Source: an uncultured Lentisphaeraceae bacterium
GTDB lineage: Bacteria; Verrucomicrobiota; Kiritimatiellia; RFP12; DVOR01
Assembly (NCBI GenBank): GCA_949288955.1
Contig: CASEMS010000010.1
Coordinates: 33,696-97,695, forward strand
Length of the DNA: 64,000 nucleotides
Direction: 5' to 3'
The position numbers and the translations under genes were made by a program. Shown in pieces: positions 139-58,024 of this stretch. The notes under the pieces were generated by a model. It saw only the letters and a program-made list of their open reading frames with translations, was not told the origin of the DNA and did no database searches. Every line of letters begins with the position of its first letter. The stretch's first letter is position 1.

Positions 139-374
139 ACCCTTAGTGTAACACAGATTCCCGACGGCGAACGCGGGCGCGCGGCCCCCTGCGTCCCACA
201 GAACGCAGGGACGGCAGGAAGGATCGGCGGCTGAGCCGAGGTGGATCAGCCGCCAACCCGAGGTGGATCAGCCGCCGAGCCGGGATGGATCGGCCGCCGA
301 GCCGGGATGGGCGAGGGGCCAAAACAAAAACGCCCCCGGGCGGGCCGGGGGCGGTGAGGGGGGAGGGGGGCGCG

Positions 375-6619: not shown

Positions 6620-7784
6620 GACGGAGGCTTGGAGGTTTGGAAGTTTGGAGGCTTGGCGGCGCCTCCCCTCCCACAGCCTTGCCCGCGTGCGCCAAACTTC
6701 CAACCTTCCAAGCCTCCAAACTTCCGATGGGCAGGGAGGGATCGACGTCGAGGGCGAGGGCGGCGGTGGGATCCGCCGGGAGGGGAAGGGCGGAGGCGAG
6801 GCCGGCGATCATGGCGGCGTTGTCGCCGCAATACTTGGGCTCGGCCAGGAGCAGGCGGACGCCGCGGCGCGCGGCGACCTGCGCGAGGGCGTCGCGGAGG
6901 GCGCGGTTGAGGGAGACGCCGCCGCCGAGGGCCAGGCTCCGGTAGGGGGCGGAGGCGAGGGCGCGGTCGGCGCGCTTGGCGAGGGCGCGGACGATGGCGG
7001 CCTGGTAGCTGGCGCAGAGGGTGGCGACGTCGGCCTCGCCCTGCGGGGGCTGCTTGCGGACGTGGGTGAGGAGCGCGGTCTTGAGGCCGCTGAAGGAGAC
7101 GCAGAGGGCGGGATCCCAACCGTCCGGGAGGGGATGGTCCTCGGAGACGCGCCCCTCGGGGAAGCGGATGGCGCGGTCGGCGCCGGGGGGGGCCTGGCGG
7201 GCGGCCTTGTCGATGACCGGGCCGCCGGGATAGCCCAGGCCGAGGAGCTTGGCGGCCTTGTCGAAGGCCTCGCCGGCGGCGTCGTCGATGGTCTGGCCCA
7301 GGAGGCGGTGGCGGTCGGGCCCCTCGGAGGCCACGAAGCAGGTGTGCCCGCCGCTGACGGCCAGCCCCAGCTGGGGCCAGAGGGCCGCGCCGCGGAGCTC
7401 GGGGTGGCCGAGGCGGACGGACCAGAGGTGGGCGTGCATGTGGTTGACGGGGACGAGCGGCTTGCCGGTGGCGAGGGCGAGCCCCTTGGCGAAGGTCCAG
7501 CCGACGAGGAGGGCCGCGGCGAGGCCGGGCCCGCGCGTGGCGGCGATGGCGTCCACCCGCGCCCAGGGGTCCGGGTCGCCGGGGAAGGCCTGCGCCAACG
7601 CCTCCTCGGCCACGGCGCGAATCTTGGCGACGTGCGCGCGGCTGGCGACCTCGGGGACGACGCCGCCGTAGGGGCGGTGGAGCGCGATCTGGGAGTAGAC
7701 GACGGAGGCCAGGACGCCGTCGCCGTCTTGGACGACGGCGACGGCGGTCTCGTCGCAGGAGCTCTCAATGCCCAGGACGGTCAC
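6612..7784 (-). CDS. tsaD: tRNA N6-adenosine threonylcarbamoyltransferase TsaD, with an unusual ~38-aa C-terminal extension read through a repeat element
   Basis: MTVLGIESSCDETAVAVV... and HMHAHL ... CGDNAAMIAGLA are the Kae1/TsaD family hallmarks. The tail ...SLEAWKVGSL...[12 protein letters not shown] is encoded by the AGGCTTGG octamer inverted array at 6623-6725. Confidence 0.85.
   Translation of the reverse strand: MTVLGIESSCDETAVAVVQDGDGVLASVVYSQIALHRPYGGVVPEVASRAHVAKIRAVAEEALAQAFPGDPDPWARVDAIAATRGPGLAAALLVGWTFAKGLALATGKPLVPVNHMHAHLWSVRLGHPELRGAALWPQLGLAVSGGHTCFVASEGPDRHRLLGQTIDDAAGEAFDKAAKLLGLGYPGGPVIDKAARQAPPGADRAIRFPEGRVSEDHPLPDGWDPALCVSFSGLKTALLTHVRKQPPQGEADVATLCASYQAAIVRALAKRADRALASAPYRSLALGGGVSLNRALRDALAQVAARRGVRLLLAEPKYCGDNAAMIAGLASALPLPADPTAALALDVDPSLPIGSLEAWKVGSLAHAGKAVGGEAPPSLQTSKPPSLRHD
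6623..6725. repeat. Octamer (AGGCTTGG/AAGTTTGG) inverted tandem array, copy 1
   Basis: ggaggcttggaggtttggaagtttggaggcttgg (6623-6656), a ~34-nt spacer, then the reverse-complement arm gccaaacttccaaccttccaagcctccaaacttcc (6691-6725). Confidence 0.8.
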
Positions 7785-7787: not shown

Positions 7788-10700
7788 TCACTCGGGGAGG
7801 CGGAGGATGAGGGTGCGCATGGTGGGCGCGGTGAGGCGGCGATCCAGCTCGATGAGGGCGGGGAACTGCCAGGCGTCGAGGAGGGCCGTGGCGCGGTCGG
7901 TGGTGGCGGTGTAGGTGAGGCGCACCCAGCCGGTGGGCGTGACGGACTGCTCGCAGGTGAGGGAGGCCTGGCCGCCGCCGGGGAAGCTGACGGTGAAGGG
8001 CTCGGGCTTGGAGAGGATCTCGGAGCCGGGGGGGAGCCACAGGTCGAGGGTGCGGCGGGCGCCCTCGACGCCGGTCTGCCAGATGGGGTTCTCGCGGGTG
8101 ACGCCGCGGAGGCCGTAGGCGGCGGCGGTGAGGTTCTGGATGGGCAGGGCCAGGAGGCGGCCGCGGCGCTGGGCGTAGGCCTTGGCCTCGACGGCGAGGC
8201 GCGCGCGGGTGGGGTAGGCGCGGGTGTCGACGGTGTACTCGCTGACGGGGGTGGCGCCGGAGGCGAGGGCCTCGGCGAGGGCGGCGACGGCGCGGCGGCG
8301 GTGCTCGGGGGTGATGTCGCGCTCGACCTGGCGGGTGATGCCCGCGAGGGCACCCCAGCACCGGGTGGTGCCGGCGATGGTGGCGTCGCCGTTGGGCTGG
8401 AGGACGAGGACGGTGTCGGTCTCGGTGCGGGTGCGGAGCGCCTTGGGCGCGGCGTAGAGGGTGCGGCCCTCGGCGGTCATGAGGGCGCAGGAGCCGCGGT
8501 TGGCGGAGCCGGGCTCGGCGAGCTCGGCCTCGTCGCCCACGAGGCGGCCGTCGGGCAGCAGGAGGTAGGGCGTCGTCCAGCGCGACCACATGGGCACCTG
8601 GCGGAGGGCGAGGCGCTCGCCGAAGCGCAGCTCGGTCTCGAGGGTCTGGTCGTTGGCGAAGACGAGCTGGGCCTCGATGTCGGCGGCGCGCAGGAGGGCG
8701 AGCCAGAGGGTGAGGCGGTCGAGGCGGTTGCCGTAGCCCTCGGCGAGGGTGGCGGCGGGCGGCGTGAGGGTGCCCCAGCGGAGGGACTCCCAGGCGGGCC
8801 CGGCCTGGCGGATGTTCTTGGCCATGAAGGCCTGGATGGCGCGCAGGCGGCCCTCCAGGTCATCGCCGTCCAACGCCTCGGTGAGGCGCTCGGCGGTCTC
8901 CTCGACGCTCTCGCCGGGCTCGTCGGCGGCGGCGTCGGCCTGCTTGGCGAGCGCGGGGAGGACGCGGTGGGCGGCGGCGTCGCGCAGGGCCAGGTGGAGG
9001 GTCGGGCGGATGAGGGGCGCGGCGGGGATGGCGGCCTCGGGCTTGGTGGCGGGGAGATCGCGCACGACCCAGGCGCGGGTGACCTGCGTGCCGTTGGTGA
9101 CGACGGTGCGGGAGACGGCGGCGTCGGCGAAGTTGCGCTCGGCGATGCGGAGCTGGCCGTCGAGCGCCACGGGGAGGGTGAGCGTGTAGCGGTCCTCGCG
9201 GGTGGGGTAGGCGCCGGAGCCGAAGGTCACGGTCTGGGCGAAGGGCCCGCCGGCCTCGGTGGTGGTGGTCACGTCCACGTGGGTCACGGCGCCGACGTCC
9301 ACGGCGGGCAGGGAGAGGACGGTCTGGCGGAAGGCGGGGTAGCGGGGCGCGAGGGCGGCGCCGTCGGCGTCCAGGCGGGAGATCTCCTTCTCGGTGATGG
9401 GCACGCGGTCGCCGGTGGCGGTGGTGACCGTGACGGCGTTGAGGGCGAGGGTCTGGGTGTCGGGGTTGTGATAGAGGGTGACCTCGCCGTTCTCGCGCTT
9501 GCCCTGGAAGGTGAGGATGCGCTTGTCGGAGACGGTGCGGGTGGTGCGCGTGCCGTCCTCGGCGATCGTCTCCTCCACGGCGCTGAGGAGCACCTCGGCG
9601 TCCACGTCCCGCTCGGCGTCGCGGGTGAAGAGGGGGCGCAGGCTCTCGACGCGGCTCATGCGCTCCTTGAAGCGGCGGAGGGCGCGGTAGTCCTCGGGCG
9701 TGTAGACCTTGTGGGAGAGGACGAGCTCGCGGGTGAGGGTGAGGTCGCCGTTCTCGGCGCGGCGGCAGACGATGTCGAAGGAGGCGCCGTTGGCCTTGAG
9801 GATGGGGTCGTCGGGGAGCAGCTCGGCCTTGCCGAGGCGGCCGACGCCGCGGAGGGTGAGGGTCTCGCGGACGCCGCAGGGCGCCTCGATCTCCCAGTCA
9901 TACTTGCGCGTGGGCTGGTCGAGGCCGTTGAAGAGGAAGTTGATGACGCCGACGGCGCGGCTGAGGAAGGGGAGGGTGACGAGCGTCCGCCCCTTGGCGT
10001 CGGGCACGCCGAAGGCGGGCACGCGGCCCTTGACGCGGACGACGAGGGGCTGGGAGATGTCCTTCGGGTCCTTCGGGGCGATGTCCAGCTCCTCCAGCTC
10101 GGCGCCGGGGGCGGCGCGCTTGAGGAGGCCGTCGAACATGTCGCGGATGGTCTCGGGCTGGGTGCGGACGAAGGCGGAGCGGTAGGCGTTGTCGTTCACG
10201 CCGCCGAAGCGGATGGTGGATTCGAGCGCCAGGTCGCCGGAGGCGTCGAGCGTGCCGACGGTCTCCACCTCGGCCATGTTCTTCTCGGGGCCGGGGACGG
10301 GCACCTGGCGGAGGTCCTCGCCCTCGGGGCGGCAGACGAGGAAGGAGCAGTTGCTGAGGTAGGCGGGCAGCTCGGCGCGGGCGGTGTCGTCGGTCGGGTC
10401 CAGCAGGCGGTAGTTGCGGTTGCCCTCGTCGATGGCCACGACCGCGTGGTTGAAGTAGGGCACGGGCACCTCGCGGTCGCGGGGGCTGCCGGCGTGGATG
10501 AGCACGGGATAGGCGTCGATGCCGGCCTTGCGGAACATGGCCACCAGGAGGGCGCCCTTGTCGCGGCAGACGCCGTAACGGTTGTCGAAGGTGAGGGAGA
10601 CGTCGTGCGGCTCGTAGCCAGGGGCGGTGTCCTCGGCGATGATGCCCATGTAGCGGATGCCTTGGGCGACGAAGCCGAAGAGCGCCTCGATCTGCTCCTC

Positions 10701-11612
10701 GCGGCTCTTGCCCTCGGTCAGCTCCCGAACCTTGGCGTCGATGGCCGGGGTGGTGGCCAGGTGCCTCTCGCAGAGGCCCCAATACCACTTGGAGATCTCC
10801 TCCCACGTGGAGAAGGTGGAGACGGAGACGCGCTGGAGGGTGACGAAGCGGTCGGGCATCTTGTCCTCGGCGAAGCTCTGGGGCACGTCGCGCGCCACCC
10901 AGCGGTGGAGGGTGCGGCCGTCGGCCAGCGTCTCACGGCTGGCGGTGACGGTGCCGGGCACCTCGTCGATCAGCGCCGAGGCGCGCAGCGGCAGCTCCTT
11001 GGGCGCCACGATGGTCATCTCCGCATACGGCACCGGGCCCTCGAAGCTCTCGAAGACGCAGAGGTTGGAGAAGGTGTCGGGGATGCGCGGGCGCACCGTG
11101 CGCATGGCGGCCACCACGTGCAGCGTGTCCCCCACCGACACCTTCGGCACGGTCAGCACCAGGTTCTTCATCGAGGGGTCGTAGATGTTCGCGTCGTGGC
11201 TGTCGTTGCTCGTGGCGATGGAGAGGTTCGCCTCCAGGTCTATCGGCGTCACCGTGCCATCGGGGGAGACGATCTCCGCCTGCAGGAAGTGGGATTCCGA
11301 CCACCCCTCCCGGAACCAAAGCGGCATCGTGCGCAGCTCCTTCGCCCCCGGCTCCGTCAGCGCCTTCGTCCAGAACTCGAACCACGTGGTGTCCGTGCCG
11401 TCGGGGGCGTACTCCACCCACTGCGCCTCCGCCACCGTCAGCGTGTCGGCGTCCGGCGCCGTGGCGCGCGTCGCGGCCGCCGCGCGCGCCATCGCCTCCG
11501 CCCGGTCCAACGTCTTGGGCATCGCCGGGAACGCCGCCCAGCCCCACGCCGCCACGACCGCCACGGCCGCCGCGGACAGCCAAACTCGTGCATGCATCGC
11601 AACTCCGTTCAT
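7788..11612 (-). CDS. Large secreted DUF3857/transglutaminase-like (cysteine-protease-fold) protein with a duplicated, degenerate second TGase-like core
   Basis: An SD GGAGAAAGG sits 9 nt upstream of MNGVAMHARVWLSAAAVAVVAAWG (signal peptide). The core GIRYMGIIAEDTAPGYEPHDVSLTFDNRYGVCRDKGALLVAMFRKAGIDAYPV is a transglutaminase-like Cys motif. A second TGase-like segment (GYGNRLDRLTLWLALLRAADIEAQLV) lacks the Cys. Confidence 0.6.
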   Translation of the reverse strand: MNGVAMHARVWLSAAAVAVVAAWGWAAFPAMPKTLDRAEAMARAAAATRATAPDADTLTVAEAQWVEYAPDGTDTTWFEFWTKALTEPGAKELRTMPLWFREGWSESHFLQAEIVSPDGTVTPIDLEANLSIATSNDSHDANIYDPSMKNLVLTVPKVSVGDTLHVVAAMRTVRPRIPDTFSNLCVFESFEGPVPYAEMTIVAPKELPLRASALIDEVPGTVTASRETLADGRTLHRWVARDVPQSFAEDKMPDRFVTLQRVSVSTFSTWEEISKWYWGLCERHLATTPAIDAKVRELTEGKSREEQIEALFGFVAQGIRYMGIIAEDTAPGYEPHDVSLTFDNRYGVCRDKGALLVAMFRKAGIDAYPVLIHAGSPRDREVPVPYFNHAVVAIDEGNRNYRLLDPTDDTARAELPAYLSNCSFLVCRPEGEDLRQVPVPGPEKNMAEVETVGTLDASGDLALESTIRFGGVNDNAYRSAFVRTQPETIRDMFDGLLKRAAPGAELEELDIAPKDPKDISQPLVVRVKGRVPAFGVPDAKGRTLVTLPFLSRAVGVINFLFNGLDQPTRKYDWEIEAPCGVRETLTLRGVGRLGKAELLPDDPILKANGASFDIVCRRAENGDLTLTRELVLSHKVYTPEDYRALRRFKERMSRVESLRPLFTRDAERDVDAEVLLSAVEETIAEDGTRTTRTVSDKRILTFQGKRENGEVTLYHNPDTQTLALNAVTVTTATGDRVPITEKEISRLDADGAALAPRYPAFRQTVLSLPAVDVGAVTHVDVTTTTEAGGPFAQTVTFGSGAYPTREDRYTLTLPVALDGQLRIAERNFADAAVSRTVVTNGTQVTRAWVVRDLPATKPEAAIPAAPLIRPTLHLALRDAAAHRVLPALAKQADAAADEPGESVEETAERLTEALDGDDLEGRLRAIQAFMAKNIRQAGPAWESLRWGTLTPPAATLAEGYGNRLDRLTLWLALLRAADIEAQLVFANDQTLETELRFGERLALRQVPMWSRWTTPYLLLPDGRLVGDEAELAEPGSANRGSCALMTAEGRTLYAAPKALRTRTETDTVLVLQPNGDATIAGTTRCWGALAGITRQVERDITPEHRRRAVAALAEALASGATPVSEYTVDTRAYPTRARLAVEAKAYAQRRGRLLALPIQNLTAAAYGLRGVTRENPIWQTGVEGARRTLDLWLPPGSEILSKPEPFTVSFPGGGQASLTCEQSVTPTGWVRLTYTATTDRATALLDAWQFPALIELDRRLTAPTMRTLILRLPE

Positions 11613-11685
11613 GGTAAGCAACCTTTCTCCCCTCATCATAACACATCCCCCCCGCCCTTGGGAAGCCCCCCCAAACGCACCCGGC

Positions 11686-11783
11686 GGGGGATTTACACCG
11701 CAAAGACGCAAGGGGGCGCGGGAGGCTCGCGGGCTAACGCCGGTCGCTCTGCGGGCTGCGCCCGCTGACCGCTCCCTACCGCG
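11686..11783 (+). repeat. ~95-bp dispersed intergenic element, copy A (also 31321-31413 in + orientation, 58025-58112 in reverse)
   Basis: gatttacaccgcaaagacgcaagggggcgcgggaggctcgcgggctaacgccggtcgctctgcgggctgcgcccgctgaccgctccctaccgc is near-identical to the other two copies. Confidence 0.75.
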
Positions 11784-11788
11784 CAATC

Positions 11789-11822
11789 GGAAGTTCGGAA
11801 GGTTGGAGGCTTGGAGGCTTGG
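11789..11822. repeat. Octamer AGGCTTGG tandem array, copy 2 (abuts the CRISPR-like array)
   Basis: ggaagttcggaaggttggaggcttggaggcttgg. Confidence 0.75.
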
Positions 11823-12026
11823 CCGCGCACGCGCGGGGCATCGGGAGCGCGTCGCGCTCTTCGGAGGTCAGGACGGGGCTTGGCCGCGCACGCGCGGGGC
11901 ATCGACCCCCACAGCCGCACCGCCGTCATGGCGGCGAGGCTTGGCCGCGCACGCGCGGGGCATCGTCTTAGGCCCAACGTCATTCCATATTTGATTCTGG
12001 CTTGGCCGCGCACGCGCGGGGCATCG
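11816..12026 (+). CRISPR. Orphan CRISPR-like mini-array: 4 x 28-nt repeat GGCTTGGCCGCGCACGCGCGGGGCATCG with 3 x 33-nt unique spacers; no cas genes in window
   Basis: Repeats lie at 11816-11843, 11877-11904, 11938-11965 and 11999-12026 and are identical. Spacers lie at 11844-11876, 11905-11937 and 11966-11998. The repeat contains the palindrome CCGCGC-ac-GCGCGG. Spacer 3 (tcttaggcccaacgtcattccatatttgattct) is ~39% GC against ~70% for the genome. Caveat: a partial repeat copy in reverse orientation (58108-58125) sits next to octamer repeats at another locus, so this may be a tandemly expanded REP/MITE-type element. Confidence 0.4.
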
Positions 12027-12039
12027 CCATCCCTCCCCG

Positions 12040-12118
12040 GCTCGGCCGCTAAGACTGGGAGAGTCGGCGGCTGATCCACCCCGACTCGGGGGCTAAGCCA
12101 CCGAGACTTAGCGGCTGA
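12040..12118. repeat. 22-bp REP-like tandem family (GAGGTGGATCAGCCGCCGAGCC-type), locus 2
   Basis: gtcggcggctgatccaccccgactcgggggctaagccaccgagacttagcggctgagg. Related units also occur at 221-312, 12521-12602, 22619-22684, 31636-31722, 40566-40626 and 57643-57740. Confidence 0.75.
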
Positions 12119-12135
12119 GGCTTCCCAACCCGCCT

Positions 12136-12240
12136 GCCAGGACATCTAGGACGGCTAGGACCTCTAGGACATCTGGGACGCTCGCCCTGTACGCCGCCGT
12201 CCTAGTCGTCCTAGCTGTCCTGGTTGTCCTAGCTGTCCCT
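12136..12240. repeat. Long imperfect hairpin built from five 9-mer tandem units (CTAGGACNN) and their inverted complement
   Basis: Left arm ccaggacatctaggacggctaggacctctaggacatctgggacg; loop ~15 nt; right arm cgtcctagtcgtcctagctgtcctggttgtcctagctgtccc. Confidence 0.7.
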
Positions 12241-12379
12241 TCCCTGCGGCGTGCCTATAGGCGCGTCCGCAGGACGCGCCCGGGGGTGCAGGGTGCCTTG
12301 CACCCTGCCGGGGGCCTTGGGGCGGCGCCCCCATTCCCCAAAAGACCTCCGCTCGTCCAAAGGCGGATCTGTCGCCGTC

Positions 12380-12505
12380 TCTCGGTGTCTCGGCCCCCGA
12401 GGCGCGAAGGCGGCGGGCGGGAGGGCGAAGCAAGGGGGCGTCTCCGCCCCCGCCGCGTTCGCCCGGCGTTAGCCCGCCGTCCTTCGCGCGCCCTCGCGCC
12501 CTCGC
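12380..12505 (+). repeat. ~120-bp dispersed element, copy 1 (reverse-orientation copy at ~57765-57885)
   Basis: gaaggcggcgggcgggagggcgaag...ccgccgcgttcgcccggcgttagcccgccgtccttcgcgcgccctcgcgccctcgcgg is ~90% identical to the reverse complement of 57771-57885. Confidence 0.65.
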
Positions 12506-12635
12506 GGAAAAGAAGCCCCCGGCGGCCGACCCACCCCGGCTCGGCGGCTAAGTCTCCTCGGCTCGGCGGCTGATCCACCGAGACTCAGCCGCCGAGTCTC
12601 CGCGAGAGCGCGGGCGCGACGGACGGGGCGGGCTG

Positions 12636-12644
12636 TGCTATACT
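12636..12644 (+). promoter_or_regulatory. Extended -10 promoter (TGCTATACT) 8 nt upstream of the rsmI ATG; likely leaderless transcript
   Basis: ggctgTGcTATACTaatgggtcATG; the same architecture occurs at guaA (26371-26379) and at the 3034 gene (3016-3026). Confidence 0.45.
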
Positions 12645-12652
12645 AATGGGTC

Positions 12653-13375
12653 ATGGATTTGGTTGCGCAGCTGTACGTGGTGGCGACGCCGCTCGGGAAC
12701 CTGGGGGATCTCACCCCGCGGGCGCGGGAGGTGTTGGCTGCGGCGCGGGCCATCGCCTGCGAGGACACGCGCAGGACGTGGCAGCTGCTCTCGGCGCTGG
12801 GAATCCCGAGGCCGGAGCTCTTCTCCTACCGCCAGGGGAACGAGGAGGGCGTGTCGCGCCGGATCGTGGGGCTGGTGCGGGCCGGGACGGCGGTGGCGCT
12901 CTGCTCGGACGGGGGCTACCCGGGGATCAGCGACCCGGGCTACCGCGTGCTGCGGGCCTTCGCGGGGGAGGGGCTGCCGTGGACGGTGCTGCCGGGGCCG
13001 TGCAGCGTGGAGCTGGCGCTCCTGCTCTCGGGCCTGCCCACCTCCAGCTACACCTTCAAGGGCTTCCCGCCGCGCAAGCCCGGGGCCCTGCGCCGTTGGT
13101 TCGGGGAGGAGGCCGCCGCCCGCCACACGTTGGTGGGCCTGGAATCGCCCTTCCGCATCGGCGCGACGCTGCGGGCGGCGCTGGAGGCGCTGGGGGACCG
13201 GGAGGCGGCGGTCTGCCTGGAGATGACCAAGGCCCACGAGCGGGTGGAGCGGGGGACGCTCGCGGCGCTGGCCGAGCGTTTCGCGGGGCCGCCGCCGAAG
13301 GGGGAGCTGACGTTCGTGATCGCGGGGGCGAACCCGAAGTTCGATCATTCCAAGGAGGACGGGACGGATGCGTAA
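12653..13375 (+). CDS. rsmI: 16S rRNA (cytidine1402-2'-O)-methyltransferase RsmI
   Basis: MDLVAQLYVVATPLGNLGDLTPRAREVL...LCSDGGYPGISDPGY are typical RsmI (tetrapyrrole-methylase fold) motifs; 240 aa. Confidence 0.85.
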   Translation: MDLVAQLYVVATPLGNLGDLTPRAREVLAAARAIACEDTRRTWQLLSALGIPRPELFSYRQGNEEGVSRRIVGLVRAGTAVALCSDGGYPGISDPGYRVLRAFAGEGLPWTVLPGPCSVELALLLSGLPTSSYTFKGFPPRKPGALRRWFGEEAAARHTLVGLESPFRIGATLRAALEALGDREAAVCLEMTKAHERVERGTLAALAERFAGPPPKGELTFVIAGANPKFDHSKEDGTDA

Positions 13376-15204: not shown

Positions 15205-15306
15205 GGAAGTTCGGAGGCTTGGAGGCTTGGAAGTTTGGCGGCGCGACGCCACCCCCGCACCAAGCCACCAAGCCTCCAAGCCTCCAAACCTCCAAGCCTC
15301 CAATCC
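15205..15306. repeat. Octamer AGGCTTGG inverted tandem array, copy 3 (between pdxJ and tgt)
   Basis: ggaagttcggaggcttggaggcttggaagtttgg ... caagccaccaagcctccaagcctccaaacctccaagcctccaatcc. Confidence 0.8.
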
Positions 15307-21668: not shown

Positions 21669-22538
21669 ATGACCGCCGCCCCCGCCCCCGCCACCTTCGT
21701 CGCCCTCGACAGCGACGGCACCGTCCTCGACACCATGGGCCCCAAGCAGCACCGCTTCCTCCAGCCCATGCTCGCCGACGCCCTCCGCCTGGAAGGCCCC
21801 CTCCGCGACGCCTACTTCGCCTGCGCCGACTTCGTCAACCTCCGCTCCGCCGCCCGCGGCATCACCCGCTTCAACGCCGTCCTCCTCGCCCTCACCCTCC
21901 TCAACCGCCACCCCGCCTACCGCGCCTCCGGCCGCCCCCCCCTCCCCCTCGCCCCCCTCCGCGCCTTCGTCGCCAGCGGCCTCCCCCAATCCGACGCCGC
22001 CCTCGACGCCTGGCTCCGCCAACACCCCGACCCCCTCCTCCGCACCCTCCTCCAATGGGGCCGCGCCGTCAACGCCGCCATCCTCGGCTCCGGCGCCGTC
22101 TTCGACGTCTTCCCCGGCGTCGCCGACGCCCTCGCCGCCATGCACCGCGCCAGCACGCTCGGCATCGTCTCCCAATCCCCCGAACGCGTCCTCCGCCAAG
22201 ACTGGGGCGCCCACGGCCTCCTCGCCCACGTCGACGCCGTCGCCGGCCAGGAACTCGGCGCCAAGGCCGCCCAACTCGACGCCCTCACCCGCGCCTACCC
22301 CCCCCACGCCGTCCTCATGGTCGGCGACGCCTTCGGCGACCTCCAGGCCGCCCGCGCCCGCGGCTGCCGCTTCTTCCCCATCCTCCCCGACCACGAGGCC
22401 GCCTCCTGGCGCACCCTCGCCCACGAGATCTACCCCGCCTTCCTCGCCGGCGCCTACGCCCCCGAGCGCGAAGCCACCCTCATCGCCGCCTTCACCCACG
22501 CCCTCCCCTCCCCCGACTCCCCCCCCTGGGAACGCTGA
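21669..22538 (+). CDS. HAD-superfamily hydrolase
   Basis: FVALDSDGTVLDT (DxDGT motif I) ... MVGDAFGDLQAA (motif IV DD-like). Confidence 0.55.
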   Translation: MTAAPAPATFVALDSDGTVLDTMGPKQHRFLQPMLADALRLEGPLRDAYFACADFVNLRSAARGITRFNAVLLALTLLNRHPAYRASGRPPLPLAPLRAFVASGLPQSDAALDAWLRQHPDPLLRTLLQWGRAVNAAILGSGAVFDVFPGVADALAAMHRASTLGIVSQSPERVLRQDWGAHGLLAHVDAVAGQELGAKAAQLDALTRAYPPHAVLMVGDAFGDLQAARARGCRFFPILPDHEAASWRTLAHEIYPAFLAGAYAPEREATLIAAFTHALPSPDSPPWER

Positions 22539-22618
22539 CGGCAGGGAAAAGGGACGCCCCGGATCGCCCAAACGTCCCGAAAATCCCTCAGGCCATTCAG
22601 AGCCCTCCCCCGCCTCTC

Positions 22619-22684
22619 TGAGGATCGGCGGCTGATCCACTGAGGATCGGCGGCTGATCCTCCCCCGATCGGCGGCTGATCCAA
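22619..22684. repeat. 22-bp REP-like tandem family, locus 4 (3 units)
   Basis: gaggatcggcggctgatccactgaggatcggcggctgatcctcccccgatcggcggctgatcc. Confidence 0.75.
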
Positions 22685-31287: not shown

Positions 31288-31325
31288 GGAGGCTTGGAAG
31301 TTTGGAGGCTTGGAGGCTTGGGGGG
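31288..31325. repeat. Octamer AGGCTTGG tandem array, copy 4, immediately followed by the ~95-bp element copy B (31321-31413)
   Basis: ggaggcttggaagtttggaggcttggaggcttgggggg, then gatttgaccgcaaagacgcaagggggcgcgggaggcttgcgggctccgccggtcgctctgcgggcttcgcccgctgaccgctccctaccgc. Confidence 0.75.
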
Positions 31326-31733
31326 ATTTGACCGCAAAGACGCAAGGGGGCGCGGGAGGCTTGCGGGCTCCGCCGGTCGCTCTGCGGGCTTCGCCCGCTG
31401 ACCGCTCCCTACCGCCCTCGCCTCCCGCCCATCCCCCTTCGTGTCCCCCGTGCCCCCCTTTGTGTGCTTCGTGATCTCCCTCTGGCAGTCCTGCGCGGGC
31501 CACGCCCGCGCTCCCGTTGTGGCCTTTGTGTCCGTTGTGATTGTCCCCCCCTCGTGCTTCGTGTCCCCCTGTGTCCCCCTTCGTGTGCTTCGTGATCTCC
31601 CCCTCGCCGTGCCGGGCGCTTGGCGGCCCCCCCGAAGCCGATCGGCGGCTGACCCAATGTGGATCAGCCCCTAGTCCGAGGTGGATCAGCCGCTGATCCG
31701 AGGTGGATCGGGGGCCGAGCCCGGCGGCCCCGC

Positions 31734-31763
31734 TTGACAGCGGGGCGGGGGGTGTGCTAGTAT
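31734..31763 (+). promoter_or_regulatory. Sigma70-type promoter for tRNA-Ser (TTGACA, 18-nt spacer, extended -10 TGCTAGTAT)
   Basis: cgcTTGACAgcggggcggggggtgTGcTAGTATcc, located 30 nt upstream of the tRNA 5' end. Confidence 0.5.
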
Positions 31764-34781: not shown

Positions 34782-36131
34782 TCACTCCCTGCCCACCGCA
34801 AGGACACGAAAGCCCAGCCGTTGGAGGGCGCGGTGGTCAAGGAGATTGCGCGTGTCGAAAAGCAGCGCGGGCTTGCGCATGGAAGCGTGGATGCGCGCCC
34901 AGTCAAGGTCGCGGTAGCACGGCCATTCGGTCATAAGCAGGATGGCATCGGCACCTTCGGCGGCAACGTAAGGATCTGGCTCAAGGGTAACGTGCGGGAG
35001 ATGGGCAAGGTCACGCCGGGCGTTGGGGAGGGCCTTGGGGTCGGTGACGACGAGCTGGGCGTGCTCCTCGGCCAAGAGGTTGGCGACGGTGAGGGAAGGT
35101 GTCTCGCGGGTGTCGCCGGTGTTGGCCTTGAAGGCGAAACCGAAGAGCGCAATCCGCTTGCCGGCGAGGGTGTTGAAGAGGGCCTTGACGGTGCGGGCGA
35201 CGATTCGGCGCTGTTGCTCGGCGTTCATGCGAATGACGCCTTCCCAATAATCCGCCGCCGCATCGAGGCCATAGGAGCGGCAGAGATAGACGAGGTTCAG
35301 CACGTCCTTCTTGAAGCAGGAGCCGCCGAAGCCAGGGCCGGCTTGGAGGAACTTCGGGCCGATGCGGCGGTCGAGGCCGATGACGTGCGCCACCTCCGAG
35401 ATGTCCGCCCCGGTCGCCTCACAGAGGGAGGAGAGGGCGTTCACCGAGGAGATGCGCTGCGCCAGCATCGCGTTGGCCGCCAGCTTGGAGAGTTCGCTCG
35501 ACCAGACATTCGTGGTGATGATACGCCGCCGCGGCACCCACGCCGCGTAAATCTCCACCAACGCCCGCACCGCCGCCCGCCCCCGCGCCGTCTGCGGCCC
35601 GCCGATCAGCACGCGGTCCGGGTTCAGCAGATCGTTGATTGCCGAGCCCTCCGCCAGGAACTCCGGGTTCGAGAGCACCGTGAACGTGTGCTCCGGGTGC
35701 GTGTGCAACACCGCCGCCATCGCGTCCGCCGTCCGAACCGGAAGCGTCGACTTCTCCACCACGATCTTGTCGCCGTTCGCCTCCTGCGCGATCGTCCGCG
35801 CCGAAGACTCCCAGTATTGCAGATCCGAGGCGTAACCCGCCCCCTCGCCAAAGGTCTTCGTCGGTGTGTTCACCCCCACAAAGATGATGTCGCACGCCTT
35901 GATTGCCCCCGCGATGTCCGTCGAGAAGAAGAGATTCTTCCCGCGGCACGCCTTCACCATCTCGTCCAACCCCGGCTCATAGACTGGCAGACTGTCCGAG
36001 TTCCACGCCGCGATCCGCTCCGCGTTGATGTCCACCACCAACACCTTCCTATCCGGGTTCATCTTGGCGATCACCGCCATCGTCGGCCCGCCAATATACC
36101 CCGCCCCAATGCACGCAATGTCCCGCCTCAT
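34782..36131 (-). CDS. ugd: UDP-glucose 6-dehydrogenase
   Basis: MRRDIACIGAGYIGGPT (Rossmann) ... GFGGSCFKKD (catalytic Cys) ... GFAFKANTGDTRE; 449 aa of the long (eukaryote-like) type. High GC, native. Confidence 0.9.
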   Translation of the reverse strand: MRRDIACIGAGYIGGPTMAVIAKMNPDRKVLVVDINAERIAAWNSDSLPVYEPGLDEMVKACRGKNLFFSTDIAGAIKACDIIFVGVNTPTKTFGEGAGYASDLQYWESSARTIAQEANGDKIVVEKSTLPVRTADAMAAVLHTHPEHTFTVLSNPEFLAEGSAINDLLNPDRVLIGGPQTARGRAAVRALVEIYAAWVPRRRIITTNVWSSELSKLAANAMLAQRISSVNALSSLCEATGADISEVAHVIGLDRRIGPKFLQAGPGFGGSCFKKDVLNLVYLCRSYGLDAAADYWEGVIRMNAEQQRRIVARTVKALFNTLAGKRIALFGFAFKANTGDTRETPSLTVANLLAEEHAQLVVTDPKALPNARRDLAHLPHVTLEPDPYVAAEGADAILLMTEWPCYRDLDWARIHASMRKPALLFDTRNLLDHRALQRLGFRVLAVGRE

Positions 36132-36137
36132 AGCGAA

Positions 36138-37643
36138 TTATCGACTCCGACACATCTTAGAGTCCACAAAACACCTCTGAACCATCGCAGTCTCCGGCGG
36201 CATAGACCGCTGCCAGATTCTTGCCCAACGCTCCTTCCGTAACCTTGCCGCATCTAGTGCTAATCCCGTGAACACCAAAGCCCACATAATTCCGCCCATA
36301 CCTGTCATTGAAAACATTGAAAATTCACCAAGATTGGAAATCAAAATTACAAGCAAAACCGCACCCGTCGAAACTGCACCTTGAGATATGAATGAACAAA
36401 AGGCAATTATCAAGAATATAAGAAACAAAACGAAACCCAAGATCCCGCCTTCCTCAAGAATAGCAGTTATCCATACCCCTTTTTCAATCGGTGCGGACAA
36501 AAGATCCGTAATCGAGTTAATTTCTCGGTGTTCCATTCCCTTTGACACTTGGAATCCATTACCAATAACTGGACTCTCACTAAAGTTCTTCAAAGCCTCA
36601 TCCATCAATCCCTGACGCGTTTTAAGAAGTTCTTCCGAGGTAATTTCTAGTTTCGCATCCTTTGCTACATATTTCAGTGCAAATCTCGCAGTAGCCTCTC
36701 GTATCTGTGGACTAATCGAAAAAACAATACCCCCTAAAAGAAAAAGACCAAACAACACTGTCTGCACCTGTACCTTCCAAGTTGTTCGGGTCTGTTTGGA
36801 GAACGAGAAACACATCCCGACAAAACACATTCCTGCCACATAAGTTCCCATCGCAGTTCGGCTTGAAGAATAATAAATTAAAACAGGGATACCCAACAAT
36901 AATACAGAATAAACAATATCCCACCGTTTTAAGACAAATAATAAATCGGCGAAAAGGATAACGCTTGTTGCCGCCAAGAGTGGCCCGAGGGCTTGTGGAC
37001 TATTTGTAATTCCAGTAAACAAGCCCATCGCAGAAACAGGCAATCCCATTTCTATTGCTTGCTGTGCACCAACTTTTGCGATTCCAGGAAATGGGATTAG
37101 GCACAGCGATCCTACAACCCAAAATATAGCAATCGCCAAAACAATATTACGTAACTCTAAGGCCTCTTCCCCTCCCGCAATATAAACCTTTGAAACACTA
37201 AAAAACGCAATCAATGTAATAACAAAAAGGAAGAGTTTTAAATAACTTATCAACGGAGACCATCCCGCACACGAAACAACACCCATATAAACGCAATATC
37301 CGAATAATGTGAAAAATGGCGTCAGCAATGGACTACGTCGAACACTGAGAGCTTTTAAGCCCATAACGACACTCGCCAATAAATAAACAATTCGATTCGC
37401 AAATGAAAATACTACATCTTTCGGTGCGATAAATGAATTCGCAAAAGTCAAAACCCCTGTAAGTAACAGACAAAAGAATATACCCCGCATACTGTTCTTC
37501 ATCAATGCTCCAATGAGCACAAGAAGCAATACAGCAAAACCTGTCCCTCCCGTCGCTTTCATTATTCCGCACAATAAAATTATTGCGAAAAGATACCAAG
37601 CGACCTTTTTAGGTTGATACGCAGTGTTTACCATCTTCATCAT
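36138..37643 (-). CDS. Wzy-like O-antigen/EPS polymerase (O-antigen ligase superfamily, ~11 TM)
   Basis: A polytopic membrane protein with the large periplasmic loop typical of Wzy/WaaL. Low GC (~45%), so the compositional break falls right at the ugd boundary. Confidence 0.55.
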   Translation of the reverse strand: MMKMVNTAYQPKKVAWYLFAIILLCGIMKATGGTGFAVLLLVLIGALMKNSMRGIFFCLLLTGVLTFANSFIAPKDVVFSFANRIVYLLASVVMGLKALSVRRSPLLTPFFTLFGYCVYMGVVSCAGWSPLISYLKLFLFVITLIAFFSVSKVYIAGGEEALELRNIVLAIAIFWVVGSLCLIPFPGIAKVGAQQAIEMGLPVSAMGLFTGITNSPQALGPLLAATSVILFADLLFVLKRWDIVYSVLLLGIPVLIYYSSSRTAMGTYVAGMCFVGMCFSFSKQTRTTWKVQVQTVLFGLFLLGGIVFSISPQIREATARFALKYVAKDAKLEITSEELLKTRQGLMDEALKNFSESPVIGNGFQVSKGMEHREINSITDLLSAPIEKGVWITAILEEGGILGFVLFLIFLIIAFCSFISQGAVSTGAVLLVILISNLGEFSMFSMTGMGGIMWALVFTGLALDAARLRKERWARIWQRSMPPETAMVQRCFVDSKMCRSR

Positions 37644-38701
37644 AGATCCTCTTTTACCTTACACGGCATATATGACAGCCGCTTCTGCACATTAGAAAAA
37701 CAGTTGCGTATAAAACAAATAAAAGCAAAGAACAAACACATACTTCTAGGAAAACTCCATGCAAGACGAATAATCCAATAACTTTCCCAAATGTCTTTAT
37801 TGCCTACATAACGACCTATTAATTGACTTGAGCATATGCGATAAAGATCACGAATATTTTGAATCCGATTCTCTCCCATTGCTAACGGTGCCCGCATGGC
37901 ACTTAAAATCAGATTACGCGTATTTCTTATAATCCACATATTCCACATCATCTCTGAAGACATCACACCATAACGCATAACCATTTCTCGTCGAAATCGT
38001 ATAACTGATAGAAAGTCAACCATATTCTGCCGCTTGTAATTGCGTACAGACGACTGAGCATTAGGCAAATAGTGATACAACCCCTCATGCAGAAGCCCAA
38101 GACGCGTTACTTTTTCAAATAAGTAAAGATTCAATATCATATCATCGAACATCAAGACCGACATCTCTGCAAAACGAGAAAAGTCGTAAGTGTTTTTATA
38201 AAGTTTATCCCAAACAAAGACAGCTCCCTGCCCACAAAACAACCTTGGCCACACATATTCCTTAAAAACTTGTTCGCGTGTTAAAAAAAGTTCTGGCTCC
38301 ATGTATACGCCATGGCACGAATCGCATTGTACAATTTCCAATTTATTCTGAACCGCAAACGTATACAAACGTTCATACATGGTGGATTCAATGAAATCGT
38401 CTGCATCCACGAAACCAAACCAAGAAGAATGAATACGACGTAATCCCATTAAGCGAGCTAAATATCCTCGCTTATTACGTTGATGAAGAACATGTACCCT
38501 TGAGTCTGCCCGAGCTAACACATCAGCGATTTCTCCTGTTCCCTCATCAGAACCATCGTCCACAATCCAAATTTCTATAGCCGGATAAGTCTGACACAAA
38601 ATAGAATTAACCGAACGCGTTAAAAAATGCCCAACGCGATATGCAGGCACTATAACCGAAATTGTCTCTGCCTTTACCTTTTCTGCTCTACACAAACACA
38701 T
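37640..38701 (-). CDS. Glycosyltransferase family 2
   Basis: ISVIVPAYRVGHFLTRSVNSILCQTYPAIEIWIVDDGSDEGTG...FVDADD is the GT-A DxD-type N-terminus. Low GC. Confidence 0.75.
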   Translation of the reverse strand: MCLCRAEKVKAETISVIVPAYRVGHFLTRSVNSILCQTYPAIEIWIVDDGSDEGTGEIADVLARADSRVHVLHQRNKRGYLARLMGLRRIHSSWFGFVDADDFIESTMYERLYTFAVQNKLEIVQCDSCHGVYMEPELFLTREQVFKEYVWPRLFCGQGAVFVWDKLYKNTYDFSRFAEMSVLMFDDMILNLYLFEKVTRLGLLHEGLYHYLPNAQSSVRNYKRQNMVDFLSVIRFRREMVMRYGVMSSEMMWNMWIIRNTRNLILSAMRAPLAMGENRIQNIRDLYRICSSQLIGRYVGNKDIWESYWIIRLAWSFPRSMCLFFAFICFIRNCFSNVQKRLSYMPCKVKEDL

Positions 38702-38702
38702 T

Positions 38703-39800
38703 TCAAGCCTCTTCGATTTGCGCCATTAATACTTGTGCGATGGCACGCCAGGCATATCGGTTCAACGCCAAAGCCCGCCCGCGACGACCGAACTCATCCA
38801 ACTCCGAATCCGAAGCCATCAAAAAACGCCCCAAAGCCTCCGCCAACGCCTTCTCGTCCAACGCGAAGGTCTCGCCACACCCCTTCTCGTGCAGAACCGA
38901 CCAAGGCGTGGCCTCAGAGGCCAAGACCGGCAAACCAAAACCCAACGCGTCCGGGACTACGCCCCCGAAGTTCTCTGTGTAGGACGGCAGAACCAACAAC
39001 CGCGCCAGACGATAGGCCGCCTCCTTGTCCGCACCATACAGCGGCCCCGTGAATGTAACATCCGCCTCTGCGAAGTTTTCCAGCTGCGCCCTCTGCGTCA
39101 CCACCCCCACCTGCTGCGCCAAGCGCTCCAGTTCCCCCATATGCCCGGCCTGATCGGGGCCCACGCACACCACGTGCCAATCCCCGAGCGCATACGACTG
39201 CTTGAGGCGCGCCCACGCCCGAATCAGCAAATCCAACCCCTTCACGGGATAAATGCGCCCCACGAAGAGCACCACGTGCCGCCGCCCCGAAGAATCCGGC
39301 GCCTCCTGCGGTGCGACCGTCCCCAACGGCGCTTCCGCGATCCGATTGCGAAAACCCAGATCCCGAACCCACCGAGCCTCCTGCGCCGACGTCACGTGAA
39401 GCGTCGACACCCCCCGCAGCGCCCACCGCTGATACAACCACCACGGCGCCATCTTCTTCCACCGCTTATGCGCCATCGCCCACGGCGCCAACATCCCGTG
39501 CGGCGACCACACCGCCGGGACTTTATGCAGCTTGGCCCACAGGAAGGCCCGCATGAGCCACGGATCCCACAACGCGTGGATGTGCACCACCTCCGGACGC
39601 CACCCACCCGCCGTCACCCCGCCGATGCCCCCCACGAAAACGCGCACCCGATCACCGACGGGATAGAAATCCTCCCCCCGCCGCCTCACCAAAAGGCGGC
39701 AGTCATGCCCCATCCCAGCCAATTGGCGCAACACCTCCCCGCAAAAGACGGAGGTGCCAGCGGCCCTAGCCATCCCTGTAATCACATGCAAAATCCGCAT
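38703..39800 (-). CDS. Glycosyltransferase family 4 (GT-B)
   Basis: MRILHVITGMARAAGTSV... with the C-terminal ...LVLPSYTENFGGVVPDALGFGLPVLASE (the E-x7-E-like GT4 motif). High-GC segment inside the island. Confidence 0.75.
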   Translation of the reverse strand: MRILHVITGMARAAGTSVFCGEVLRQLAGMGHDCRLLVRRRGEDFYPVGDRVRVFVGGIGGVTAGGWRPEVVHIHALWDPWLMRAFLWAKLHKVPAVWSPHGMLAPWAMAHKRWKKMAPWWLYQRWALRGVSTLHVTSAQEARWVRDLGFRNRIAEAPLGTVAPQEAPDSSGRRHVVLFVGRIYPVKGLDLLIRAWARLKQSYALGDWHVVCVGPDQAGHMGELERLAQQVGVVTQRAQLENFAEADVTFTGPLYGADKEAAYRLARLLVLPSYTENFGGVVPDALGFGLPVLASEATPWSVLHEKGCGETFALDEKALAEALGRFLMASDSELDEFGRRGRALALNRYAWRAIAQVLMAQIEEA

Positions 39801-39883
39801 ACCCCACACTATAGCACATTTTGGTTCCTTTCATCCGAATCATTTGTTATACTCACGACAGTTACCAACGAAGGATTTACGTT

Positions 39884-40519
39884 ATGGCCCTTGCGAAACT
39901 GTTACTGACGATTACTTTATCCACGCTGGCACTCGTTTCCGCCCGAGCAGTCGCCATGCCTTGGACACTTACCAATTTCGACTATCTACAACAAGCCGAC
40001 GAATCGCAACAACCTAGCGAATCGCGCCCAATCTCTGGTGTACAGATTCCCTCTTTCAACCTTTCCCTCTCCGACCTCTCGACTTCGGGCGATATGCAAC
40101 TCGCCTCCCAAACGGTCGTCCTTGAAACGGTTCTTATCGCCATGCGATCAGCCGGGCCAGACAAATTCGTCCCGGAGCGACTCATCCTCGCCCAAAAAGA
40201 TGGCACGCGTATTGCTGCCGCGACTGCCACTCCCACCTCACAAACCGTCACGGTTTACACCAGCCCCACGACGACTACCACTTGCAACGTGTGGGCATAT
40301 ACCTTTAGCGGAAAATTGCCAACGATAAGTACCTCCATCGATTACGATCTCATTTTCGCCACTAGCGATTGGTCTATTTATGAGACCTCCAAGTTTCGCG
40401 ACGACCAAACTATTCTCGCTCGAAACATCGCTGACGAGCCAAACATTGAGAACGCCATCTGGGCCCCCTTCATCCTGACAAGCGGCACATATACACCCCC
40501 CCCCCAGTGGCGCACCTGA
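39884..40519 (+). pseudogene. PEP-CTERM-type secreted protein interrupted by a C10 homopolymer; the +1 frame continues to 40580 encoding PEPTALSLLALGVALTFLRRR
   Basis: A signal peptide MALAKLLLTITLSTLALVSARAVA leads a Thr/Ser-rich body of ~48% GC. The C-run at 40496-40505 is followed by TGA at 40517. With 9 C instead of 10 the ORF reads ...TPPPSGAPEPTALSLLALGVALTFLRRR* (stop 40578-40580), a textbook PEP-CTERM sorting signal. The tail DNA is ~70% GC. Confidence 0.6.
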
Positions 40520-40565
40520 GCCGACGGCCTTGTCCCTCCTCGCCTTGGGGGTGGCCCTCACCTTC

Positions 40566-40626
40566 CTCCGCCGCCGCTGATCCACTTGGATCAGCGGCTC
40601 GTCCGAGGTGGATCAGCCGCCGATCC
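40566..40626. repeat. 22-bp REP-like family, locus 6
   Basis: gctgatccacttggatcagcggctcgtccgaggtggatcagccgccgatccgac. Confidence 0.7.
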
Positions 40627-40646
40627 GACCCGAGCAAGCCGCCATC

Positions 40647-40684
40647 GCAAAAAAGGGCCCCCGACGCTTCCCGCGCCGGGGGCC
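40647..40684 (-). terminator. Rho-independent terminator for the acyltransferase gene (minus strand)
   Basis: On the minus strand, GGCCCCCGgcgcgggaagcgtCGGGGGCC is followed by cttttttg. Confidence 0.55.
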
Positions 40685-40710
40685 ACCTTTCATCATCCAA
40701 GCCTATCCGC

Positions 40711-41772: not shown

Positions 41773-41773
41773 T

Positions 41774-43027: not shown

Positions 43028-43111
43028 ACGAGCCCGCACCGTTCCTTTCCGCTTGACTTCGCACCAAGACTCGACAACTGTAGAATGTCAATAGATGTAA
43101 AACCGACTCCA

Positions 43112-43618: not shown

Positions 43619-43632
43619 GTCGTCTCTTTCTC

Positions 43633-44589: not shown

Positions 44590-44607
44590 AAACTACTCCT
44601 CTATATC

Positions 44608-46784: not shown

Positions 46785-46826
46785 AACGCGCTTAGTGTAG
46801 CAAAAACGTAGCAATCACACTTTGCC

Positions 46827-48773: not shown

Positions 48774-48783
48774 TGCTTAATGA

Positions 48784-57642: not shown

Positions 57643-57740
57643 TCCCGACGGCTCGGCCGCCGACGCAAGGTGGATCGGCCGCCGACGCAAGGTGGATCAG
57701 CCGCCGAGCCGAGGTGGATCAGCCGCCGAGCCGGGGAGGG
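57643..57740. repeat. 22-bp REP-like tandem family, locus 7 (4 units)
   Basis: cgccgacgcaaggtggatcggccgccgacgcaaggtggatcagccgccgagccgaggtggatcagccgccgagcc. Confidence 0.75.
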
Positions 57741-58024
57741 CTGGCCGCCGACGCTTCTTTTCCGCGAGGACGCGAGGGTGCGCGAAGGACGGCGGGCTAA
57801 CGCCGGGCGAAAGCGGCGGGGGCGTCCCGCCCCCTGGTTTCGCCCTCCCGCCCGCCGCCTTCGCACCGCAAGGGGGGTGGCAATCCCCCCGCAGAAGCCG
57901 GGGCGCTCGGCGCGGGAGGGCACGGATGTGCCCGGCGTTAGCGCCGACGCGTCCCGGCGCACCCGCGTCTTCGCGAAAACTCCCCCGCCATGCCAACGCC
58001 TTTGGGCAGCGCGGGAGGCGAGGG

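Follow-up and report, generated by a model that had tools for sequence, protein, structure and literature searches.

The 64-kb stretch of DNA studied here (the window) lies on contig CASEMS010000010.1 of an uncultured Lentisphaeraceae bacterium (assembly GCA_949288955.1, positions 33,696 to 97,695) and contains seven intergenic arrays of a phased 22-bp repeat built on an imperfect palindrome. We favor the interpretation, which we consider reasonably probable, that these arrays form a lineage-specific, non-coding, non-autonomous repeat family: a dispersed bacterial 'minisatellite' of imperfect-palindrome units. The family is probably selfish or neutral, and prone to recombination. Judged by sequence, the host is a gut Kiritimatiellia bacterium close to 'Candidatus Spyradenecus'; the PdxJ protein encoded in the window is 78–92% identical to proteins of gut metagenome-assembled genomes (MAGs) labeled Kiritimatiellae or 'Candidatus Spyradenecus'.

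Seven phased arrays lie in non-coding spacers

Tandem Repeats Finder (TRF) detects period-22 arrays at all seven sites named in the original prediction (217–310, 12060–12119, 12520–12579, 22618–22683, 31640–31709, 40573–40629 and 57656–57751). Read in unit phase, which gives the coordinates and unit counts used below, they are:

Array 1, 221–308, plus strand: four units, comprising a flipped head (GGATCGGCGGCTGAGCCGAGGT), two standard units and a tail (GGATCGGCCGCC...).
Array 2, 12034–12121, minus strand: four degenerate units of a 'CTTAGC' subtype, adjoining a CRISPR-like mini-array.
Array 3, 12511–12598, minus strand: four units, with a head hairpin at 12560–12598.
Array 4, 22617–22682, minus strand: three direct units.
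Array 5, 31639–31726, plus strand: four units, comprising a head, two standard units and a tail.
Array 6, 40566–40631, plus strand: three units, the first inverted and degenerate.
Array 7, 57650–57759, plus strand: five direct units.

Each element spans 66–110 bp and contains three to five 22-bp units, in the strict phase that had been claimed. The exact 12-nt core of the unit, GGATCAGCCGCC, is found 10 times in the window compared with 0.03 times expected from dinucleotide-preserving shuffles, and the 17-mer GGATCAGCCGCCGAGCC, with up to three mismatches, gives 21 matches compared with 1.3 expected. Twenty of these 21 matches fall inside the seven arrays; the remaining one, within aspS, equals the chance expectation. 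Thus, the family consists of arrays only, with no isolated single units.

The window has a GC content of about 71%, except for a low-GC island at 36–50 kb, and because of this high GC content long spurious open reading frames (ORFs) overlap some of the arrays. Judged by codon-position GC (GC3), Pfam matches, and promoter and terminator scans, none of the seven arrays falls within a real gene. The giant ORF apparently covering array 7, for example, has its true start at 57531, after an AAGGAG ribosome-binding site and a TTGCAA/TATACT promoter. The original description of a short, dispersed family that is always between genes, at a density of about one array per 9 kb, is therefore upheld, and the family is not tied to a single paralogous gene family.

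Unit architecture and predicted folding

The unit consists of a 17-bp imperfect palindrome (GGATCAGC-C-GCCGAGCC, with the right arm GCCGA(G/T)CC) of 8-N1-8 geometry and a 5-bp linker, usually GAGGT; the repeat spacing corresponds to two helical turns. The 10 nt between successive cores are conserved, with the consensus GAGCCGAGGT. Arrays 1, 3 and 5 share the layout head-standard-standard-tail. In the head unit the outer arms and the linker are kept while the center is flipped (GGATC-GGCGGCT-GAGCC), and head and next unit are predicted to pair in a stem of 12–15 bp. The tail unit bears TCGGCCGCC. Array 6, and the allele of array 4 on the same-species contig L089 (loci outside the window carry L numbers), contain a flipped head followed by two standard units only.

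It had been proposed that the unit contains an inverted pair and that adjacent units form hairpins. The inverted pair is present where a flipped unit adjoins a normal one, in arrays 1, 3, 5 and 6, but not in arrays 4 and 7, where all units are direct. Folding, which was calculated for single-stranded DNA and expressed as z relative to shuffles, gives the same division. The headed arrays fold better than shuffles (array 1, z = −3.6; array 3, −2.3; array 5, −2.3; array 6, −3.5; the headed L089 allele of array 4, −5.3), whereas the all-direct arrays show no excess of structure (array 4, −0.5; array 7, +1.3; the array at L093, −0.2). The hairpin proposal therefore holds for headed arrays and fails for all-direct ones.

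Within a single unit, six of the eight mirrored pairs are complementary in at least 22 of 34 units, five of them in at least 26. Pairs 3–15 and 6–12 are mismatched in most of the 34 units. Covariation is detected for pair 3–15 only and is weak, the observed value being reached in 53 of 2000 shuffles. Because two stem pairs are mostly mismatched and covariation is weak, hairpin formation by the single unit is not conserved, and on the same grounds we excluded selection acting on a single-unit hairpin.

Arrays are remodeled among strains of the host species

The 22-bp family is carried by same-species contigs from about a dozen independent metagenome assemblies, all in one ENA project. Ten strains were recovered through an exact match of the tRNA-guanine transglycosylase protein, and L089/L095 is 98.3% identical to the window over 11 kb, with arrays at three orthologous sites. 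Comparison of strains revealed both insertion and copy-number polymorphism: between near-identical strains, whole units are gained or lost, centers are switched and arrays cross over with each other.

The spacer between the DUF3857 gene and rsmI, which holds arrays 2 and 3 in the window, ranges from 339 to about 1030 bp among strains. At the array-2 site there are three units in L097, four in L094 and five in L095, with a composition different from that of the window; L097 has exactly one 22-bp unit fewer than L094. L102 is the product of a clean crossover of the two arrays: unit 1 at the array-2 site runs, within GGCGGCTGATCCAC, straight into units 2–4 of array 3, with loss of the roughly 400 bp that separate the arrays. 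Array 4 retains three units, with the center GGCGGCT, AGCGGCT or AGCCGCC and linkers that vary by strain. The window and L095 differ at 12 of 66 positions in array 4 and at 4 of 128 in its flank, whereas L094 and L095 differ at 5 of 66 in the array and 18 of 128 in the flank. The haplotypes of array and flank are thus uncoupled.

Strain-specific insertions and rearrangements end at array edges. In L096 (9386–12047), a low-GC insertion of about 2.5 kb ends at the edge of array 4 and replaces window positions ~21670–22600; it encodes an SLFN_AlbA_2/HATPase_c_4 protein, and the HAD hydrolase gene is truncated and replaced. L001, L002 and L099, arranged upstream of rsmI like L018 from another species, part from the window sequence at 12627, which is 25 bp away from the head of array 3. 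A truncated acyltransferase gene adjoins the array at L093.

Upstream of rsmI, the species has two coexisting arrangements: DUF3857-rsmI with repeat mosaics, as in the window, and 8xMP-rsmI, as in L001 and L099. The latter is shared with the species represented by L018 (L001 1360–2263; L099; L018 7605–8165) and includes about 400 bp of conserved, structured-looking non-coding sequence without an Rfam match.

Distribution of the family and of related arrays

Beyond the strain duplicates, when 5.8 billion proteins were searched for the consensus array in translated form, just two ORFs were returned, both from the same ENA project, and they led to loci L093 and L103. This search served as the source of two new loci and is not a census. 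At L093 the array is accompanied by two copies of module B (described below), and at L103 it lies upstream of a Cas3-HD-like ORF. The family is thus not confined to the seven loci of the window: nine distinct loci with about 35 units are found in ~85 kb of the host species, all extragenic.

Outside the species the sequence itself was not recovered. Two phased cores gave no match in a scan of 185,579 species genomes; a scan of JGI metagenomes gave three unrelated chance duplications only, and IMG/VR none. BLAST searches of plasmid and phage collections with the family gave no matches, and the core in tandem is absent from 80 PdxJ-relative loci and from the aspS relatives (L086–L088). No Rfam family matches the arrays at gathering cut-offs. 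A scan of the region of arrays 2 and 3 (11600–12700) at a permissive E-value produced spurious matches, far below threshold, of miRNA hairpins to the neighboring 9-bp-repeat hairpin. A literature search with the motif found unrelated primer sequences only and no mention of it as a bacterial repeat, and the few papers naming 'Spyradenecus' do not, by their titles and abstracts, deal with genome repeats.

What is shared with related species is the frame. In 573 kb of DNA from the clade, TRF detected 20 period-22 and five period-23 arrays, whereas no such array was present in 916 kb of DNA of less closely related Kiritimatiellia, Verrucomicrobia and others. The arrays of the relatives have different unit sequences, again with a short palindrome plus linker; they too are intergenic, sometimes with several loci per 20 kb:

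L007, 5145–5345.
L006, 7951–8014.
L086, 12320–12439.
L016, 12024–12078 and 14245–14299.
L011, 451–507, 6529–6621 and 12088–12148.
L008, 13349–13406.
L022, 12158–12285.
L024, 7984–8040.
L087, 7567–7630.

The unit of L006, L007 and L086 (GACC-CTATAGT-GGTC) is present in up to 8.8 copies with center-flipped variants; the L008 unit is AGGGTTT-N-AAACCCT, and that of L011 is the AT-rich CAAAACAGCCTGTTTTG. Several of the relatives' arrays combine a CGAGGT linker with center-flipped variants. GAGGT itself is found in five of nine unit families, with a rough expectation of about 5% per family, which would give P of the order of 1e-5 if the families were independent. As they probably are not, we read the sharing of GAGGT as shared ancestry.

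Position relative to genes and promoters

The copies occupy non-coding spacers, where most of them follow a terminator or closely precede a promoter, and most arrays are outside predicted transcripts. Array 1 separates the terminator of a GH3 gene (353–331, minus strand) from the promoter of the following gene, which is also on the minus strand (ATG at 138). Array 6 directly follows the terminator of an acyltransferase gene (40684–40656, minus strand). Since canonical terminators already stand beside these two arrays, we rejected the idea that the arrays are ordinary terminators. Array 4 is placed between the convergent genes for the HAD hydrolase and a hexapeptide transferase; it may lie within the 3' untranslated region (UTR) of the transferase gene, if the terminator-like site at 22569–22552 (minus strand) is real.

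Arrays 3, 5 and 7 are close to promoters. The distance from the end of array 3 to the inferred −35 box of rsmI is about 14 bp; the −10 box of rsmI, TATACT, is at 12639–12644, and a TGTGCTATACT box is found 8 nt upstream of the rsmI ATG. In L024, a related species, the position taken by array 3 holds an array of its own, some 70 bp upstream of the rsmI −10 box. The tail of array 5 ends 8 bp before the −35 box (TTGACA, 31734) of the tRNA-Ser(GCU) promoter, TTGACA/TAGTAT. Array 7 occupies the divergent spacer between aspS and the giant gene (promoter 57610–57582, ATG 57531, minus strand), and its distance to the −35 box of the giant gene is 39 bp. A fixed spacing to promoters was rejected, because array-to-promoter distances are 8, 14, 39 and 49 bp and both orientations are found.

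Extended −10 promoters (TGTGnTAnAnT) are seen at 12634–12655, 139–155 and 31752–31763 of the window and at 395–415 of L103. In three cases (rsmI, the minus-strand gene that starts at 138, and the L103 ORF), no more than about 7–8 nt separate the box from the ATG downstream of it, which suggests that leaderless mRNAs are common in this host.

Accompanying modules and other repeats

The arrays belong to larger mosaics with other repeat modules. Two of these modules, together with a family of 8-bp tandem repeats, are listed here:

Tail module, 12401–12510, minus strand: ~110–120 bp, non-coding, joined to the tail of array 3; conserved in strains L094–L101.
Tail module, 57760–57867, plus strand: joined to the tail of array 7.
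Module B, 11686–11782, plus strand: interspersed repeat of ~95 bp, near arrays 2 and 3.
Module B, 31321–31415, plus strand: near array 5.
Module B, 58024–58107, minus strand: near array 7.
Module B on other contigs: L093 9810–9969 and 13185–13320; L086 8370–8460.
8-bp (GGAGGCTT)n arrays: 6623–6725, 15205–15303, 31288–31324, 58110–58170 and 11803–11822.

Array and tail module together (12401–12595 and 57867–57675) are 86.7% identical over 195 bp. Module B accompanies arrays 2 and 3, array 5, array 7 and the L093 array. Within the species its copies share 90–95% identity; a copy in another species (L086) is 83% identical, and the presence of module B there indicates that it is older than the 22-bp family. 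The L086 copy is preceded by a TATACT box, and the differences at some stem-like positions look compensatory. Module B may be a small RNA or a regulatory module, as far as its sequence suggests; it has no match in Rfam.

The (GGAGGCTT)n repeats form a second interspersed family, often facing (AAGCCTCC)n to make a long hairpin with a tandem-repeat stem, and copies are found near arrays 2 and 3, array 5, array 7 and the L093 array. Same-species strains carry the copy between pdxJ and tgt, and the corresponding gap in the related species L018 is 8 bp. As the copy is missing from L018, we interpret it as an insertion.

Several other features adjoin the arrays. Next to array 2, a CRISPR-like mini-array (11816–12026) contains four copies of a 28-bp repeat, GGCTTGGCCGCGCACGCGCGGGGCATCG, recurring every 61 bp exactly and separated by three unique spacers of 33 bp each; the window contains no cas genes. 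In L101 this locus has two repeats and a different 33-bp spacer, and the group-B strains do not have it. The Cas3-HD-like ORF at L103 belongs to the same species. For two of the mini-array spacers, no protospacers were found in IMG/VR, and BLAST against a phage collection gave no match. At 12139–12238 there is a hairpin of 9-bp repeats (AGGACATCT... facing GTCCTAGCT...), and at this site other strains have a different 9-bp-repeat hairpin (GTCCTTCNG... facing ...GAAGGAC). At L093, a 200-bp tandem repeat (9309–9806, 2.5 copies, 89% matches) lies beside the two copies of module B and the 22-bp array; parts of it match window positions 31437–31618.

Array 6 is at a junction inside the low-GC island (36000–50000, GC 42–58% compared with about 71%). 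The island encodes Wzy-like, GT2, GT4, GT-D, acyltransferase and hexapeptide transferase proteins, which make up a surface polysaccharide cluster. After these come genes for KAP-family NTPase, DUF3226 and AAA_21/AAA_15 ATPase proteins, a group that resembles a defense module.

Origin and possible functions of the arrays

In the interpretation we favor, the family would be maintained as neutral or selfish DNA. Within a genome, units would be homogenized through slippage and through RecA-type exchange among copies. Such concerted evolution would account for the finding that every related species has a unit sequence of its own on one 22–23-bp frame. The main effect on the cell would come from short homology tracts and hairpins that promote intergenic deletions, insertions and rearrangements, in the manner of repetitive extragenic palindromic (REP) sequences and bacterial interspersed mosaic elements (BIMEs), mycobacterial interspersed repetitive units (MIRUs) or Neisseria-type intergenic repeats.

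Several observations weigh against this interpretation. No mobilizing enzyme, target-site duplication or conserved insertion target that would account for the dispersal step was found. Outside strain duplicates, ~85 kb of the species genome is covered, and genome-wide abundance is therefore an extrapolation. Retention of the 22–23-bp frame and of the GAGGT linker across species hints at constraint beyond pure drift. Furthermore, five of the nine loci (arrays 1, 3, 5, 7 and L103) end within ~50 bp of a promoter −35 box, and a period of two helical turns, together with this promoter proximity, also fits a DNA-binding function.

The last point raises the question whether the arrays are phased binding sites of a nucleoid-associated protein, of gyrase or integration host factor (IHF) as at BIMEs, or of a dimeric regulator. 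Each 17-bp palindrome would then be one operator, and the 22-bp spacing would place successive operators on the same face of the helix, insulating or tuning neighboring promoters. We regard this as possible but unlikely. The 8-N1-8 symmetry and helical spacing are what such sites would look like, the five promoter-proximal arrays end 8–50 bp from a −35 box, the center flips spare the outer half-sites, and the majority of arrays are not in predicted transcripts. The array of L024, from another species and unrelated in sequence, is also at the equivalent position upstream of rsmI. However, promoter distance and orientation are not fixed, and arrays are also placed between convergent genes and after terminators. 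Unit sequences are completely replaced between species with 80–90% nucleotide identity in housekeeping genes, a turnover that would be hard for a many-site regulon to follow, and arrays are gained, lost and resized among strains without obvious compensating change.

Alternatively, the arrays could be hairpins mobilized by a system resembling the REP doublets (REPINs) and their REP-associated tyrosine transposases (RAYTs), or IS200/IS605. A single-copy HUH tyrosine transposase would read the hairpin plus GAGGT, copying units via single-stranded DNA, and phased arrays would result from insertion at the same place again and again. The RAYT gene is usually present in a single copy per genome. Neither the ~39 scanned window proteins nor the Pfam lists of L086–L103 include a Y1_Tnp or RAYT domain, and the units are shorter than any known mobilized REP. 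Singlets and isolated inverted doublets are missing as well. A target-site model with insertion 3' of GAGGT was rejected, as the flanks before the first units contain no such motif. On the other side, imperfect palindromes adjoin a GAGGT that is conserved in five species-specific families, hairpins that differ by species are what co-evolution with an enzyme would predict, and the head pair would form a REPIN-like hairpin of 12–15 bp. REPINs, too, can form ordered tandem clusters (Bertels & Rainey 2011, PMC3116915). Taken together, we find mobilization of this kind doubtful.

A role as RNA appears very improbable. The arrays would act as 3'-UTR stabilizers or terminators, or as a sponge through Shine-Dalgarno-like GAGGUGGAUC motifs (anti-Shine-Dalgarno-like GAUCCACCUC on the reverse strand). 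The universal 3' terminus of 16S rRNA is GGAUCACCUCC, and GAGGTGGATC presumably resembles the complement of this end; as a function this similarity is unsupported, given that most arrays are not in predicted transcripts. Although the headed arrays fold well and array 4 may belong to a 3' UTR, arrays 1 and 6 are downstream of strong canonical terminators, arrays 3, 5 and 7 are upstream of promoters, and no promoter reading into any array was found. The lack of an Rfam match, of excess structure in all-direct arrays and of nearly any covariation in the stem pairs also argues against this role.

Finally, short-read assemblers can create or collapse repeats and many contigs of the species are short, but an assembly or chimerism artefact, or chance low-complexity sequence in a 71% GC genome, has a negligible probability: the same arrays in matching flanks are found in at least 10 independent assemblies from different samples, and the 10 cores observed far exceed the shuffle expectation given above. 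These two results rule out such an origin; the seven arrays are genuine.

Comparison with known repeat systems

The family behaves like REP/BIME or MIRU repeats and is a member of neither. Its likeness to the REPs and REPINs of enterobacteria and Pseudomonas lies in short extragenic imperfect palindromes of species-specific sequence, a link to genome plasticity, and inverted neighbors that would form a long hairpin. REPs have a GTAG-type head tetranucleotide beside the hairpin, number in the hundreds per genome, all extragenic, and are typically found in 3' UTRs. Here there is no GTAG, a GAGGT linker being conserved instead, and most copies are outside transcripts; nor is there a RAYT/Y1 transposase gene among the window proteins scanned. 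With respect to head motif and position, the REP-like label of the original prediction does not hold. The wider comparison to REP/BIME elements is borne out by the imperfect palindrome, the intergenic position and the mosaics with other modules (module B, the tail module and the 8-bp arrays), as in BIMEs. It fails on organization, since successive BIME units alternate in orientation and the units here are direct. A REP unit is a short imperfect palindrome of about 20–60 bp (PMC3116915), and the 17-bp palindrome here is at the low end of this range. REPs and REPINs occur predominantly as singlets or inverted doublets (PMC3116915), in contrast to the direct, strictly 22-bp-phased arrays of three to five units described here.

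The arrays resemble the MIRUs of Mycobacterium tuberculosis in being one tandem unit family at many intergenic loci, with whole-unit differences between strains (three, four or five units) that permit strain typing. MIRU units are 46–101 bp long, non-palindromic, often within operons, and can be in frame with flanking genes; the present units are 22 bp, palindromic, non-coding and outside operons. The BOX elements of Streptococcus pneumoniae (boxA-boxB(n)-boxC) are similarly modular and intergenic, with a variable tandem middle module and distinct head and tail modules. BOX modules, however, are 45–59 bp, unrelated in sequence, and usually transcribed with neighboring genes. Cyanobacterial short tandemly repeated repetitive (STRR) sequences are likewise very short tandem units dispersed between genes, but they are heptamers without palindromic structure; the (GGAGGCTT)n arrays of the window are even closer to them than the 22-bp family.

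Two further systems share the spacing. Plasmid iterons, such as the 22-bp iterons of R6K, are direct repeats of ~22 bp phased with the DNA helix, and they form one cluster at a replication origin beside a rep gene. Because the present arrays occupy seven chromosomal loci in 64 kb beside housekeeping genes, with no rep gene found among the scanned window proteins, they are not iterons. CRISPR arrays also consist of regularly spaced short palindromic repeats; the 22-bp family is not CRISPR, because the inter-core 10 nt are conserved and there are no unique spacers.

Significance

For Proteobacteria, mycobacteria, pneumococci and cyanobacteria, dispersed repeat families are well documented. We found none described for Kiritimatiellota or other uncultured gut bacteria of the Planctomycetes-Verrucomicrobia-Chlamydiae (PVC) group. 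Here, one family can be traced across many natural strains, where its copies flag copy-number variation, deletions by crossover and the boundaries of strain-specific DNA. The arrays explain part of the turnover of the accessory genome, probably contribute to the fragmented MAG assemblies of this lineage, and provide markers of the variable-number tandem repeat (VNTR) type for strain tracking.

The conservation of the 22–23-bp frame across the clade is the part most worth pursuing. A speculative and rather unlikely extension is that the palindromic arrays of the 'Ca. Spyradenecus' clade are one half of a repeat-protein partnership new to PVC bacteria, the other half being a co-evolving mobilizing enzyme (a REPIN-RAYT analogue working on 22-bp units) or a phased DNA-binding protein (the arrays then serving as promoter-proximal insulators). 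With the frame kept and the sequence replaced among species, the arrays offer either a compact bacterial case of 'satellite' concerted evolution or a lead to a new repeat-protein system.

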